64,000 bases of DNA. Source: Escherichia phage vB_EcoM_EC001. The DNA lies in sequence record MN445185.1; one strand, written 5' to 3'. The notes beneath the pieces are model-generated. The model had not been told where the DNA came from. It was given only the letters and a program-made list of their open reading frames with translations, and ran no database searches. Both the position numbers and the translations under genes were made by a program. Of this stretch, positions 2,876-32,828 are shown piece after piece (the stretch's first letter is position 1; each line of letters starts with the position of its first letter).

Positions 2876-3673
2876 ATGAAAGCGATTCACACCTTTCGCA
2901 TGACCGGCCAAACTGTTCTCGACATTGATGCGTATGAAGCCGCTAACTTCACCAAACCGACCAAGCTCTGGGATCGCTTGGTTAAGGTACTGCCGCAAAG
3001 CGGTGAGGTGCAGTTGGATTTTGTCATGGCATCGACGTTGGATAAAACAGTGGCAGTTATTTATACTGCTGACGGTGTGCAGAGTAAGAAGGACCTGGCA
3101 ATCGAAGATAAAGGCGGGCTGGGTTATCACTTGTTCCTGCACTGCGTAACCACTGCACCGATTTCAGCTGCGCTGGCGGGACAGTACGGTTTCGCGAATG
3201 CGTATTTCCTGGCACAGAAACTCGCCGTGAATGTTATTCCGGGTGACGTGACCACTTACCCTGAATACGTACAGCGTATCCTGCCAGAGCACTTCGCTGC
3301 AGACGACTACGATTTCAACGTGTTCCGTTTCGCATTGATCGGCGAATCGCGCGATCCAGAATACACCGTTGGCTTGCGTGCCTGTCTGCGTCACTCCGTT
3401 ATCTCTTCGGATGAAGGGATGTCGAATAACGTGAACGAAGTGTTCCCGATGATGCAAGTCGGTCCGTATATCACTTTCAACTCGTACATTCCGTTCCCGG
3501 CACAGATTCTGCCGCCGCAGAACGATAACAGTGTACTGCCAATCGCCGACAAGTATTCACTGCGTGCGAGCGAAGCAGTTGAAGTGATTAACGATCGTCG
3601 CTTTACATTGTCAGTGACCAGCGGCATCAGTGAACCGGAAGTTGCGGTCTCTCAGAGCCTGGATTTGATGTAA
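2876..3673 (+). CDS. hypothetical phage protein
   Basis: 265-aa ORF; AAGGAAAA ribosome-binding site upstream; followed directly by terminator. Confidence 0.65.
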   Translation: MKAIHTFRMTGQTVLDIDAYEAANFTKPTKLWDRLVKVLPQSGEVQLDFVMASTLDKTVAVIYTADGVQSKKDLAIEDKGGLGYHLFLHCVTTAPISAALAGQYGFANAYFLAQKLAVNVIPGDVTTYPEYVQRILPEHFAADDYDFNVFRFALIGESRDPEYTVGLRACLRHSVISSDEGMSNNVNEVFPMMQVGPYITFNSYIPFPAQILPPQNDNSVLPIADKYSLRASEAVEVINDRRFTLSVTSGISEPEVAVSQSLDLM

Positions 3674-3680
3674 AAGTGTG

Positions 3681-3715
3681 CCTGGTCTCCTTGTGAGACC
3701 AGGTCTCTTTATTTT
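3681..3715 (+). terminator. rho-independent terminator
   Basis: stem CCTGGTCTC/GAGACCAGG followed by TCTCTTTATTTT. Confidence 0.8.
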
Positions 3716-3717
3716 AG

Positions 3718-3820
3718 CCCTCTAAACGCACTCACAACCTTCTAAAGCCTCTCTAACGGTAGAACGACCCTCTAAAGTGATAAAAGCTCTCAAAACGCGT
3801 TTGAGAGCGTTATAGAGGGT
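3718..3820. repeat. iteron-like cluster: four direct copies of CYYTCTAAM plus a 9-bp inverted repeat GCTCTCAAA/TTTGAGAGC with 5-nt spacer
   Basis: copies at 3718, 3738, 3748, 3768; inverted repeat at 3786-3808; sits between terminator and promoter-like element. Confidence 0.55.
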
Positions 3821-3838
3821 ATACTCTGAATAAAAATA

Positions 3839-3867
3839 ATTTCAGATATATATTACCTAGGTGATAG
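3839..3867 (+). promoter_or_regulatory. conserved promoter-like element, variant A (ATTTCAGATATATATTACYTAGGTGA)
   Basis: one of three near-identical ~80-bp copies (also 32871, 52661) ending in a conserved ribosome-binding site and ATG. Confidence 0.55.
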
Positions 3868-3915
3868 AAGACAATCTATCAACTCAATCGACTATTAATC
3901 TAAAGGAGTATTGCC

Positions 3916-4487: not shown

Positions 4488-4904
4488 ATGATTAATGAGA
4501 AGCTCCAAAAGTATTTAAAGAACGACACTGACTGGATGGTTCTTGACCAGTACGGACGATTTGTTCCGCTATCCAAGGATTCCCCTATACCCCGTGACAA
4601 GGCGATTTATATTCCTGACGGTAAGGGTGGCTATCGTTTCTGGGAAGGCCAGGAAGTAAAAGAGGAAATGTTCTACATGGAGCCGAAGTTCCGTGCAGCG
4701 TTCCCATCGAAAAATATTAACGGATATGTTTACAACGCAATTCCGCCAATCACGCATCCTAACTTTGAGGTTGTGAACTACCCCGCAACTGTTCTGGATT
4801 GGCAACGTGCCATTAGTGAACACTACACGATTCCGCTTGAAGGTGTTTACTTCCCATTCCGTGATATTAGTTTAGATGACTTTATTAACTCTCTTAAGGA
4901 CTAA
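4488..4904 (+). CDS. hypothetical protein
   Basis: AAGGA 8 nt upstream of ATG at 4488; ORF-track start 4407 would overlap the terminator. Confidence 0.6.
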   Translation: MINEKLQKYLKNDTDWMVLDQYGRFVPLSKDSPIPRDKAIYIPDGKGGYRFWEGQEVKEEMFYMEPKFRAAFPSKNINGYVYNAIPPITHPNFEVVNYPATVLDWQRAISEHYTIPLEGVYFPFRDISLDDFINSLKD

Positions 4905-4908
4905 AAAA

Positions 4909-5769
4909 ATGTACAGCATTACTGATTTTATCAAAAGTTCAGATTTCCCCCTACCTCCAGACCACGAAGTATTGGCTAGCGATCCGTTAACCGATGCGGC
5001 CATTGTCCAGCTGGACCGTGACAAACGTCGTACTTACGTCGTGTTGGTCGAAGGAAAGAGCTACGGCCTGTCTTCTTACGACCTGGAGCAGCAAGAGCGC
5101 TTCCTCGATGAAAACCGCAAAACGTCAATGTATAGCGCTATCTCGCGCGCGTTGTGCAAGGTAATGGCGACGATCACGGACAGCAAAAAGCGCGTCGCCG
5201 TGCTACAGGGTATCAATGCGCTAACGACCAAAATCCAACAACTTGAAGGTTTCCATTGCCCACGATTGGAAGCCGCACAGAAGGATGCTAAGGGTGATGA
5301 GGCCATGGTGCTGTTTGGAGGCAATACTGTCTTTGCAACAGCTGAAGCTTGTTATCTCACCTATCCAACCTTTAACTATACGCCAATCAGCGACACCGTA
5401 GACGGGATTAAAGTAGAGAACGTCGTGCAATGGGGTCGCGCAAATCTCAAGTTTGTGATGTCCCATGAAGAAGAAAATCAAGACGGCCTTGGCCAGAAGA
5501 TTCAACGTTGGTTCACGGCACGTTTGGACGCCGACTGGGAAGCGCATGTTAACGCACAGCTTCGTAAATTTCACGCGGTGGTCGCATTGTTAAAAGAAAA
5601 TACTCCTGCCCCGAAACAATCGAAGGCACCGGTGGTTGGCTGGACGTGTTCCGGCTGTAACCGCAACCATGTCGCCACAGTACCGAGAACCCATCGCTAC
5701 ACTTCGCAGACGATGAACATTGCTTGTCCGGCTTGCGGCAAGATCAACGAAGTTGATTATAAACCGTAG
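4909..5769 (+). CDS. hypothetical protein with C-terminal zinc-ribbon (CSGC...CPAC)
   Basis: AAGGA 8 nt upstream of ATG; four Cys in CxxC...CxxC arrangement at C-terminus. Confidence 0.6.
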   Translation: MYSITDFIKSSDFPLPPDHEVLASDPLTDAAIVQLDRDKRRTYVVLVEGKSYGLSSYDLEQQERFLDENRKTSMYSAISRALCKVMATITDSKKRVAVLQGINALTTKIQQLEGFHCPRLEAAQKDAKGDEAMVLFGGNTVFATAEACYLTYPTFNYTPISDTVDGIKVENVVQWGRANLKFVMSHEEENQDGLGQKIQRWFTARLDADWEAHVNAQLRKFHAVVALLKENTPAPKQSKAPVVGWTCSGCNRNHVATVPRTHRYTSQTMNIACPACGKINEVDYKP

Positions 5770-5774
5770 TAGTA

Positions 5775-5815
5775 CCCCCTCTTACCTTCGGGTAAGAGGG
5801 TTTTATATTTATTTT
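5775..5815 (+). terminator. rho-independent terminator (UUCG loop)
   Basis: stem CCCCTCTTACC/GGTAAGAGGG then TTTTATATTTATTTT; same stem reused at 32790. Confidence 0.8.
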
Positions 5816-5820
5816 CCGAA

Positions 5821-5857
5821 AAGAAAATAAAAGGCGCTCTCTCCCGAAGGAGAGAGC
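5821..5857 (-). terminator. rho-independent terminator on minus strand
   Basis: minus-strand reading GCTCTCTCC-TTCG-GGAGAGAGC followed by GCCTTTTATTTTCTTTT; convergent with the plus-strand terminator. Confidence 0.6.
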
Positions 5858-6175
5858 TTATTCACATCCACTTAGAGGTTAACATGAATACCTTTATGCA
5901 ACAACTGCGTCAGCAACAGCTGAAACAAGTCGCTTTTCAACAACGTCTGCAAGAGGTTACCCGCCAACCGCAGACTTCCACCCGTACCATTAAAGGACTA
6001 GGAGGTGAGATAATACTCAACAAGAGATAACATGAATATTTGCATGGACTAACTGTACCCGAGTGTTCACAGCACTCGGGTTATTCCATGCATATAAATA
6101 GTTCGTCGTATTTTTTTTTGATCTTGGCAGGACGCATAAACTGCCCGTAGGGGAGCTTAGGCTCCCCAGTGTTCG

Positions 6176-7738
6176 TTAGAACAAATCATCACCCATTCCA
6201 CCGGTGAAGAAGTTGATAGACGACGCTGTTACGGTTTCTTCTTTATCACAATCCCAAGGCAGGATGCCAACATCCTGGAAAGGTATCACTGTGTAGTGAT
6301 AAGATTCTTTAGTATCGATAATGGTGCGGTGCTTACCGCGTTGAACTTCTAAGAAGCTATGGCCGTTGACCACACGCTTGTTAAAATACATTTCACCATC
6401 GGCCTCGTTATCAAGGCTCGAACAACTATCGTAAAGACCACGACCAGGTAAGTTCTTACAGAAACCTACCGGGTCTAACGCTTTTAAGCGCTTACCTTCT
6501 GGGGAAATCTGGTGTGGGGCAATTAAGAACCCACGGTTGCGTACCACTTGGATGTTACGAGCAATACGATAAATTTCTTTGATATCACTCCCGGCAATAC
6601 CGTTGCCGTGTCCTGCTTTGCTGATTGTGCCTAAGTAGTCTGCGCGAATGCCAACAACATGATAACCGCGACGACGTAAGTCGAGAATAAGGTCGTTGAT
6701 GTAGTGCACTTTAAAATCGGAGTTGGTGTGCTTTTGGAAAACGTAGTCCCAACCGTTTGCGCGAATCTTACCACAGAGGTAATCAGACATTGCTGTTGTG
6801 TGTGCTAACTTCTCTTCAGCGGTTGCATCCTGTGCAATGGTCATCTGTGGAACTTGTCCTTCAAAATGACCGTACAGTGCTTGATAGCCGTAAGCTAAGT
6901 TAACGTCGAGTTCGTTTTCTAAACTCAAGTCAAGAATAATTGGTTGCAGTGTGCCCTTCACATCCGCCATTACTTTCTCAGGCGTGTTGAAGATAGGAAT
7001 CGACAAGCTCAGTAAGAGACTGAACAAAGACTTACAGTTAAAAGGTAACGCCGGCATTAGCCACAGTTCTTCGGTAATCCCTTTGTTACAACCGAGCATT
7101 TGGTTAATGGCTTTCCAGCCCGTCTGCAAACCATTACCTGCTGCTTTCTTGTTAATCGAGTCGAACACTTTAACAAACGGAGCCCGATTATCTGTAACCA
7201 GCTCACCGACCAGCGATGGAATCTTATTATGAGAGCGTTCACCGAACGTAGATAGCGCCTCTTTGAGTTCGAGCACTGCGGTGTTCAGATCAACACGTGT
7301 CTCAGTTCCATTCAATGCTCCGAACGCGCGACCCATTTTTGTTTTGAGTTCGACGCTCTGTAAACATTGACGTAATTGGAAATAATATTGAGACAGTTGT
7401 CGATTAAGATGCTCGGTACGTTTGTCTTCTTCCTCGGGCAAATCGTCTTCGAGGAATTTGGTAATCGTATCGTATAGAGGACGTACTTGAGTGGTGGCCA
7501 GCTTCAAGCGCTTCATAACGCTCGCGTGGTCGTATTCCATGCCGCCGTCTATGATAGATGTGATAATGTCCTTGATCTCGATGAGTGCAAAGCGCTCTTC
7601 GCCATCTTCCGCATATTCCGGAAGCTTGATCTGCATCAGAACTTTTCTTATGACATCATGATCCTTGCTAGGGTCCGTCAGCATAGATTCTGTATACAGT
7701 GCGGCTAAGGCGGTTATCAACATCATTTTACTATTCAT
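6176..7738 (-). CDS. hypothetical protein (520 aa), function unknown
   Basis: long minus-strand ORF; no recognisable catalytic motif. Confidence 0.65.
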   Translation of the reverse strand: MNSKMMLITALAALYTESMLTDPSKDHDVIRKVLMQIKLPEYAEDGEERFALIEIKDIITSIIDGGMEYDHASVMKRLKLATTQVRPLYDTITKFLEDDLPEEEDKRTEHLNRQLSQYYFQLRQCLQSVELKTKMGRAFGALNGTETRVDLNTAVLELKEALSTFGERSHNKIPSLVGELVTDNRAPFVKVFDSINKKAAGNGLQTGWKAINQMLGCNKGITEELWLMPALPFNCKSLFSLLLSLSIPIFNTPEKVMADVKGTLQPIILDLSLENELDVNLAYGYQALYGHFEGQVPQMTIAQDATAEEKLAHTTAMSDYLCGKIRANGWDYVFQKHTNSDFKVHYINDLILDLRRRGYHVVGIRADYLGTISKAGHGNGIAGSDIKEIYRIARNIQVVRNRGFLIAPHQISPEGKRLKALDPVGFCKNLPGRGLYDSCSSLDNEADGEMYFNKRVVNGHSFLEVQRGKHRTIIDTKESYHYTVIPFQDVGILPWDCDKEETVTASSINFFTGGMGDDLF

Positions 7739-7752
7739 GGAGCATCCTTAAA

Positions 7753-16088: not shown

Positions 16089-16101
16089 AAAAAGAAAAGG
16101 T

Positions 16102-16150
16102 ACCTCTCCCCGAAGGGAGAGGTAAACCTTATTTCTTTTTCTTTTTTTGT
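16102..16150. terminator. bidirectional terminator between convergent genes
   Basis: ACCTCTCCC-CGAA-GGGAGAGGT flanked by A-run upstream and T-run downstream. Confidence 0.8.
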
Positions 16151-32789: not shown

Positions 32790-32828
32790 CCCTCTTACCT
32801 TCGGGTAAGAGGGTATTGTCTTTTTTTA
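32790..32828 (+). terminator. rho-independent terminator (UUCG loop)
   Basis: CCCCTCTTACC-TTCG-GGTAAGAGGG then T-run; same stem as 5775. Confidence 0.85.

Follow-up and report, generated by a model that had tools for sequence, protein, structure and literature searches.

We analyzed a 64,000-nucleotide stretch of the genome of Escherichia phage vB_EcoM_EC001 (MN445185.1), hereafter the window, and in it the roughly 300 bp that separate a plus-strand operon from a convergent gene for a DnaB-like replicative helicase. These 300 bp probably form a stand-alone cassette, made up of a Shine-Dalgarno (SD) sequence, a 48-codon gene of the gp71/gp72 family and a closing hairpin (H3), with a pair of one-way terminators (T1 and T2) on one side and the 3′ flank of the helicase gene on the other. 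Judged by its pattern of substitution, the 48-codon open reading frame (ORF) is a protein-coding gene under purifying selection, conserved as coding and in fixed synteny in three phage lineages. Positions 5400–6600 share 95–97% identity with about two dozen Seoulvirus genomes (JN03, SaP7, the SPFM series, SEGD1 and SPN3US), and the window phage is an SPN3US-like (Seoulvirus) jumbo phage. An earlier, sequence-only reading of this DNA had described a plus-strand terminator at 5775–5815 facing a minus-strand terminator at 5821–5857, followed by a Gln-rich plus-strand ORF of 48 codons (5884–6030) with a GAGGT ribosome-binding site, and had raised the possibility of a micro-protein locus. All of these are borne out below, with 11 of the 48 codons encoding Gln.

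5777–5816, plus strand: T1, intrinsic terminator of the upstream operon (gp66–gp70 homologues), with its stem at 5777–5800, a UUCG loop and a T-rich tail
5808–5831, no strand assigned: A+T-only palindrome TATTTTC..GAAAATA between T1 and T2, near-invariant across relatives
5821–5857, minus strand: T2, intrinsic terminator, with its stem at 5857–5836, a minus-strand UUCG loop and a U-tract at 5835–5821
5875–5879, plus strand: SD sequence GAGGT, 4 nt before the ATG
5884–6030, plus strand: gene for a basic protein of 48 amino acids (aa), homologue of SPN3US gp71/gp72 (PHROG 18219)
6058–6080, no strand assigned: H3, hairpin closing the small-gene unit, CCCGAGTG-TTCACAG-CACTCGGG, then only TTATTCC

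A lineage-restricted gene for a small basic protein

The peptide encoded by the small ORF matched PHROG 18219, a family of unknown function, with E = 1.5e-26, residues 1–48 aligning to profile positions 1–48, and the exact 48-aa peptide, found on 161 contigs, is deposited as 'hypothetical protein', one example being that of Escherichia phage vB_EcoM_EC001. A tblastn search matched 41 phage records, and all of the homologues that we fetched from Seoulvirus and Machinavirus lie at one position, between the operon of the gp70 homologue and the convergent DnaB-like helicase gene. Searching 1.8 billion representatives with a profile of the small protein returned only three true clusters, the third composed of metagenomic contigs with matching gene order, and the remaining matches were Gln-rich low-complexity proteins; a scan of IMG/VR added one further contig. 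A 434-aa 'member' of the peptide's cluster was rejected as an unrelated permease and a clustering artefact. The small ORF is a phage gene of unknown function that had been catalogued before and is restricted to its lineage; dozens of Seoulvirus and Machinavirus records list it as a hypothetical protein, and elsewhere it often goes unannotated, as in JN03 and SEGD1.

Homologues are 47–49 aa long in Seoulvirus, Machinavirus and two metagenomic relatives (L010 and L019), and the family shares 11 invariant residues: M1, Q20, R21, P29, K37-G-L-G-G41, I43 and K47. The window ORF has both the length (47–49 aa) and the residues (Q20, R21, P29 and K-G-L-G-G-x-I...K) by which we recognized members, and no further copy of the KGLGG motif was found elsewhere in the window. 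Start codons of the homologues are mostly preceded by SD-like purine runs, some of them weak (AAGGAAA in pEa29, TAGGT in L010). Codon differences are more numerous at third than at second positions in every pair, with second positions changing least, and the ratio of nonsynonymous to synonymous divergence (dN/dS) ranges from 0.09 to 0.56 across pairs, with dS above 1 or saturated in most inter-lineage pairs. Conservation of the ORF in related phages had been proposed as the check on the sequence-only reading, and it is what we found. The gain is that a small ORF often left unannotated is now supported as a real gene under selection.

The small protein has a mass of 5.7 kDa, an isoelectric point (pI) of 11.8 and a net charge of +6, and its basic, hydrophilic character holds across the lineages (pI 10.6–11.8, net charge +5 to +7, grand average of hydropathy (GRAVY) −0.76 to −0.95). 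Gln content is no family trait, with 11 Gln in the window protein and 4 in the Huxley homologue. An AlphaFold2 model built from an eight-sequence alignment places a helix at residues 2–26, a low-confidence flexible linker, and a beta-hairpin with strands at 35–38 and 41–44 and the GG at its turn; in the alignment, the heptad-like positions 1, 4, 8, 18, 22 and 25 of the predicted helix are mostly hydrophobic. The small protein is predicted to combine an amphipathic helix with a C-terminal beta-hairpin that bears the invariant KGLGG, the two being joined by a flexible linker. We found no significant match for the peptide in Pfam, NCBIfam, PADLOC or a PDB sequence-profile search, and sub-significant matches to SF1-HH (E = 0.053), HamA (0.005, one sequence only) and uL29 (0.39) were dismissed. 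Most likely, the small protein docks on a larger partner, either nucleic acid or protein, as an adaptor or inhibitor rather than acting as an enzyme, and its strong positive charge suggests as that partner a nucleic acid or a machine bound to nucleic acid.

Two tandem paralogues of the gene, gp71 and gp72, about 46% identical to each other, are present in SPN3US, Proteus phage 7, the SPLA phages and MET_P1_082_240; in SPN3US they have diverged, yet the protein pattern is kept in both. Six related phages have such tandem pairs in which each copy has its own closing hairpin (SPN3US, positions 3484–3889 of locus L001, compared with 5884–6085 of the window). The window has one copy where SPN3US has two (SPN3US_0071/0072; YP_009153365/6), and it shares with them its length, the C-terminal KGLGG motif and the position between the gp70 homologue and the helicase gene. 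Its ORF is 92% identical to gp71 and 46% to gp72. Codons 1–39 with the upstream flank are 99% identical to the gp71 unit, and the gp72 unit is the closer match for the 3′ end of the ORF and for the closing hairpin (84% and 72%, versus 77% and 59% for the gp71 unit). The downstream flank shares 97% identity with what follows gp72. Because a gp71-like start is joined to a gp72-like end, the window gene is a mosaic allele, and its junction is the conserved GGAGGTGA (GGE) core. The reverse combination, a gp72-like N-terminus with a gp71-like C-terminus, occurs in SPAsTU, so the two mosaics together indicate that alleles have been shuffled at this core, and recombination between small-gene alleles appears to take place there.

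Facing terminators, hairpins and the helicase flank

The terminator scan gave T1 a stem of 10 pairs, 6 of them G-C, with the tail TTTTATATTT, T-rich to about 5816, and gave T2 a stem of 9 bp with the minus-strand tail GCCTTTTATTTTCTTTT; the palindrome at 5808–5831 is the source of the U-tracts for both. Folding of the 96-nt segment that spans the pair (5770–5865) gave z = −6.7 for the plus strand and −6.0 for the minus strand, a stability that 0 of 200 shuffles matched. Stem sequences of T1 and T2 vary while pairing is kept in SPAsTU, pEa_SNUABM_29, Machinavirus (Huxley, pSal-SNUABM-04 and pEa_SNUABM_43) and the metagenomic relatives, with compensatory changes in the T1 stem of pEa29, Huxley and L010. 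The G·U pairs of T1 in SPAsTU, Huxley and pSal-04 are only possible on plus-strand RNA (about −16.6 versus −11.6 kcal/mol), and the T2 stem of Machinavirus is complete only as minus-strand RNA (12 bp including two G·U, −17.9 versus −13.0 kcal/mol). These strand-limited G·U pairs indicate that T1 serves the plus-strand operon and T2 serves minus-strand transcription. Both elements consist of a G+C-rich stem-loop followed by a U-tract, with the structure kept by compensatory change on the appropriate strand, and on this comparative evidence T1 and T2 are real, strand-specific terminators. Scanning the minus strand from 6175 to 5857 returned nothing terminator-like before T2, which is the sole terminator downstream of the helicase gene.

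The small ORF is absent from the sister phages Asesino, phiEaH2 and Stratton (Erskinevirus), Wellington, CR5 and pVa-21, in which just one terminator hairpin separates the operon from the helicase gene; that of Asesino is bidirectional, given its A-rich flank on one side and T-rich flank on the other. Lineages with the ORF have this terminator divided into T1 and T2, and the small gene lies between T2 and the helicase gene, a layout kept in three lineages. Relative to the sister genera, which have one two-way terminator at this place, the small-gene cassette is by comparison of the loci an insertion. Terminators between convergent genes are themselves routine. Elsewhere in the window, the T1 stem-loop CCCTCTTACCTTCGGGTAAGAGGG recurs unchanged at about 32790–32813, where it terminates another operon 27 kb away and is directly followed by TTTACA-N14-TATG and an early-type promoter motif. 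A single two-way terminator at 16089–16150, consisting of an A-run, the hairpin GGTACCTCTCCCCGAAGGGAGAGGTA and a T-run, lies between another convergent pair, in the simpler layout that the sister genera have at the helicase locus.

4876–5769, plus strand: SPN3US gp70 homologue, directly upstream of T1
6111–6146, no strand assigned: conserved non-coding block, with a T9 run at 6111–6119, then GATCTTGGCAGGACGCATAAACTGCCC; GACGCATAAACTGCCC at 6131–6146
6150–6167, minus strand: H4, hairpin GGGGAGC-TTAG-GCTCCCC, 8 nt past the helicase stop, without a U-tract after it on the minus strand
6176–7738, minus strand: DnaB-like replicative helicase gene, SPN3US gp73 homologue (PF20307 divDNAB), convergent with the small gene

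The sequence-only reading had also placed the end of the minus-strand gene at 6176, where the helicase gene does end, and had noted two hairpins between the small ORF and this point. The first of these is H3, while the second sits at 6150–6167 (H4), the span of 6158–6175 given for it covering only the 3′ arm and unpaired sequence. Neither H3 nor H4 qualifies as an intrinsic terminator, as each lacks a U-tract, and H3 is at best a weak plus-strand terminator; in the window, an outer stem (6041–6047 with 6084–6090) lengthens it. The H3 stem has a different sequence in each lineage with its pairing always kept, and its loop is reverse-complemented between close relatives. H4 has four different stem sequences among the relatives, all of which pair, and in pEa29, Machinavirus, Asesino and pEa_SNUABM_4 its minus-strand loop is UUCG. 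Each of the H3 and H4 loops turns up as its exact reverse complement in a close relative, with the stem unchanged (TTAG in the window and CTAA in SPN3US; TTACAG in Huxley and CTGTAA in pEa_SNUABM_43), and such flips are the signature of loop inversion by template switching at palindromes.

Beside the helicase stop, 40–60 nt of unannotated non-coding sequence are conserved (6111–6167, including H4). Identity over the block at 6111–6146 is 76–89% in SPAsTU, pEa29, Asesino, Huxley and pEa_SNUABM_4, compared with 44–73% at helicase third codon positions, and the block occurs in one copy per genome, with no second copy in the window. On the helicase-sense strand its invariant core reads GG.AGTT(T)ATG.GT, with TATG at 6138–6135. 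The block is also present in Erskinevirus (Asesino, phiEaH2 and Stratton), where the small ORF is absent, and therefore belongs to the helicase flank and not to the small gene. It may be a 3′ untranslated region (3′ UTR) element of the helicase mRNA; we think it doubtful that it is a start or processing site for minus-strand RNA. Read-through of the helicase frame into the block was rejected, as the frame is open in the window and closed at once in Machinavirus (TGA GCC TAA), leaving the block non-coding. A GGCAG/CTGCC hairpin at 6126–6145 was likewise set aside, as it is not kept in SPAsTU or Asesino and the block is thus a sequence motif and not a helix. A search against Rfam 15 (E ≤ 1) returned only mir-4679, matched on both strands at 26.8 bits against a gathering score of 88, a palindrome artefact. 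In L010 (1641–2037), about 250 extra non-coding bases and more hairpins lie between the small gene and the helicase gene; the ACGCATAAACT block is absent there and the CATATAAAG...T-run segment is kept. Unannotated and conserved well beyond synonymous sites in three genera, the block is a fair target for antisense-oligomer or cappable-seq work on jumbo phages.

The order of genes in SPN3US is gp70 (hypothetical), gp71 and gp72 (two 48-aa hypotheticals), gp73 (DnaB-like helicase, minus strand), gp74 and gp75 (major capsid protein). L010 keeps this order, and next to its small ORF are genes for a divDNAB helicase and a phiKZ-type major capsid protein. SPN3US gp70 was reported to be essential, absent from the virion and of unknown function (PMC5105663). 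The C-terminus of the window homologue has a CxxC...CxxC pattern (WTCSGC...IACPACG), and the paired CxxC motifs suggest a zinc ribbon. Between the start of the helicase gene (7738, minus strand) and that of the gp74 homologue (about 7753, plus strand) there is a gap of about 14 nt (7739–7752, placed from the SPN3US annotation), so the promoters of both units must sit within the coding sequence of the neighbor; about 60 nt upstream of the helicase start, the minus strand carries TTTAAC-N15-TATG.

Promoters, probable antisense overlap and alternative explanations

SPN3US is a phiKZ-related giant phage that encodes its own multisubunit RNA polymerases (PMC5105663, PMC7598289), and phiKZ promoters fall into an early class with an AT-rich TATATTAC, a middle class with AAanTTACc at −24 and a late class with TATG, in which G is +1 (PMC4666361). 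From the intergenic regions of the window we derived two promoter classes, which are listed here with two motifs from within the locus.

3844, 10671, 10869, about 31175, 32876, 39723, 48122 and 52666 (starts), plus strand: early-type motif, (T)TTCAGATAKATRTTAYYTAGGTGA / AGATAKATRTTAY
2446, 2821, 10823, 32825, 39044 and 48153, plus strand: TTTACR-N14-TATG, five just upstream of genes, often directly after a terminator
5999–6008, plus strand: TAGGAGGTGA, a strong, near-perfect SD-like sequence inside the ORF, at codons L39-G40-G41-E42; TAGGRGGTGA across the nine distinct homologues
6091–6101, no strand assigned: 'T4 box' CATATAAATAG, with an exact TATAAATA core at 6093–6100

For the early-type motif, the 8 strong sites all lie on the plus strand, and the seven exact core matches are confined to intergenic regions. 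TTTACR-N14-TATG has six exact sites where 0.33 are expected, again all on the plus strand, five of them intergenic. Together these sites give a working description of two promoter motifs, and with T1 and T2 of the terminator style, of SPN3US-like phages. Neither class was found on either strand of 5700–6250 or at the homologous loci of relatives: the best score of the early-type matrix over 5700–6250 was negative (true sites score 29–53 bits), TTTACR-N14-TATG was absent from the same interval, and no sigma-70 promoter for the small gene reached the scan threshold. Across the whole window, TATG occurs 186 times on the plus strand and 59 times on the minus strand, with about 250 expected per strand, a bias consistent with selection against stray phage-polymerase starts on the non-coding strand. 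Just upstream of the early-type promoter at 3844, positions 3718–3820 carry CCCTCTAAA or CCTTCTAAA three times as direct repeats, spaced by 20 and 30 nt, together with one inverted copy, TAGAGGGT; these may be protein-binding sites.

A sequence near 6090 had been likened to the T4 late-promoter core, and this comparison did not survive. The exact TATAAATA is present at 6093–6100 and two hairpins follow it, the second flagged as terminator-like on the plus strand, so that a T4-type late promoter could be imagined to yield a plus-strand small RNA from these hairpins. However, TATAAATA is at chance level, with 5 occurrences in the window for 1.9 expected (a count reached by 6 of 100 shuffles); its sites are found on both strands and do not coincide with gene starts, and CATATAAATA with one mismatch allowed occurs 3 times against 3.4 expected. 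Relatives have TAGAATAA, TAGTAAGA or TATAAAGA at the site, and within the CATATAAATAG box only CATA (6091–6094), which is TATG on the minus strand, is invariant. Transcription in this group of phages relies on multisubunit polymerases of their own (PMC7598289, PMC4666361), the promoter motifs of the window differ from the T4 core, and the UUCG loops and G·U patterns assign H4 to minus-strand RNA. The TATAAATA box is a coincidence, and we give a T4-type promoter here next to no credence.

As T2 is the only minus-strand terminator past the helicase stop, helicase transcripts that pass H4 would cross the whole small gene in antisense, and from the placement of the terminators the helicase transcript probably does run antisense over the small ORF. 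The sequence-only reading had offered 5858–6175 as either a long 3′ UTR of the minus-strand gene or a separate unit, and both parts probably hold: there is a separate plus-strand coding unit, and the helicase 3′ UTR probably overlaps it. Within the ORF, the SD-like TAGGAGGTGA coincides with restricted codon choice. In all 9 distinct sequences, Leu39 is encoded by CTA or TTA (24% of Leu usage) and Gly40 by GGA or GGG (26% of Gly usage), whereas Gly38 uses all four codons, which suggests selection on the RNA sequence besides that on the protein. The minus-strand complement of this motif, TCACCTCCTA, resembles the 3′ end of 16S rRNA. In predicted folds of the putative antisense RNA, the anti-SD motif is not consistently exposed (probability of being unpaired about 0.4). 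One could propose that the conserved block and its invariant minus-strand TATG form a phage-polymerase start or processing site for a conserved small RNA, which in ORF-bearing phages would cross the small gene in antisense and carry a 16S-like anti-SD sequence, UCACCUCCUA, kept by the codon choice of the ORF. We consider this proposal a long shot; if true, nucleus-forming jumbo phages would have a switch that pairs a small protein with an antisense RNA and is linked to their replicative helicase unit.

Another possibility is that the locus mainly makes an RNA, in which case a minus-strand 'TATG' promoter of the phiKZ type (G at 6135 and/or 6091) would produce an RNA of about 260–310 nt that ends at T2, is antisense to the full small gene and silences it late in infection, and in the ORF-less sister phages the same promoter would give an A-rich RNA of about 75 nt ending at the shared terminator. 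We judge this unlikely, even though the minus-strand TATGs at 6138–6135 and 6094–6091 are both invariant within an otherwise variable alignment and match the phiKZ late element with its G start. Minus-strand TATG is four-fold below chance in the 64 kb, yet two lie within 145 nt here, T2 is a dedicated minus-strand terminator, and a related giant phage has intergenic small RNAs (PMC11512511). The high identity of the block round the first TATG, relative to synonymous sites, could be counted in its favor as well, but it is also explicable by a 3′ UTR role for the helicase mRNA. Both TATGs lack the TTTACR 14 nt upstream, unlike the six clear sites, the distance from the A-run to the second TATG ranges over 12–19 nt among relatives, and TATG is a mere four bases.

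If the ORF were instead incidental, the stretch would be a long structured 3′ UTR of the helicase mRNA, as might be supposed from T2 lying beyond the ORF and from H4 and the conserved block adjoining the helicase stop and persisting without the ORF in Erskinevirus. This is very improbable given that, with synonymous divergence saturated, the ORF retains its length, frame, start codon, SD sequence and the 11 residues, that dN/dS stays below 0.6 in every pair, that the two diverged SPN3US paralogues share the protein pattern, and that the sister genera lack the whole stretch. A module resembling a type I toxin-antitoxin system, in which a small toxic peptide is paired with an overlapping antisense RNA, would account for a hairpin-bracketed small ORF, possible convergent antisense transcription, cassette-like insertion and tandem duplication in some genomes. 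Unlike type I toxins, however, the peptide is strongly hydrophilic across the family and has no membrane segment, it has no PADLOC, Pfam or NCBIfam match, and the gene sits at a single fixed locus in a lytic phage lineage rather than being mobile and multi-copy, so we hold such a module to be highly improbable.

Several points weigh against the stand-alone cassette as we describe it. The weakest is expression, as no promoter was recognized for the small gene and T1 looks strong; H4 might end or stabilize the helicase mRNA before the small gene, removing the antisense overlap; confidence in the AlphaFold2 model is low, with a mean predicted local distance difference test (pLDDT) score of 67 and about 54 in the C-terminal half; and in the SPN3US literature searched, gp71 and gp72 are not mentioned and we found no RNA-seq. 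That literature likewise yielded no transcript map for SPN3US-like phages. We nonetheless favor the cassette as the probable explanation. Under it, T1 would end the upstream plus-strand operon and T2 would end minus-strand transcription, so that helicase transcripts would run antisense through the small gene and stop at T2. The convergent units could then interfere with each other, through RNA duplex formation or polymerase collision. Expression of the small gene might depend on read-through of T1 or on a promoter type not yet defined, and the small protein would act by docking on its larger partner.

Comparison with known systems

The locus is in most respects ordinary and by itself matters little, its only new parts being the conserved block in the helicase flank and the probable antisense overlap. 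Antisense overlap of convergent units of the 'excludon' type has been described in Listeria. The arrangement here resembles the Listeria excludon in that the long 3′ end of the transcript of one gene would be fully antisense to its neighbor; it differs in that the overlap is deduced from terminator positions alone and opposed functions of the two genes are not known.

The two promoter classes of the window parallel those of phiKZ, as the early-type motif echoes the phiKZ early element and TTTACR-N14-TATG combines the equivalents of the phiKZ middle TTAC and late TATG. In contrast, 5700–6250 is without either class and has only bare, conserved minus-strand TATGs. The giant phage 201phi2-1 has bidirectional terminators between convergent genes (15 mapped, PMC11512511), and these are like T1 and T2 in placing G+C-rich UUCG-loop hairpins and U-tracts where the two transcription units meet. 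Unlike those of 201phi2-1, the terminators here are two separate hairpins, one for each direction, and a whole plus-strand gene lies inside the minus-strand unit.

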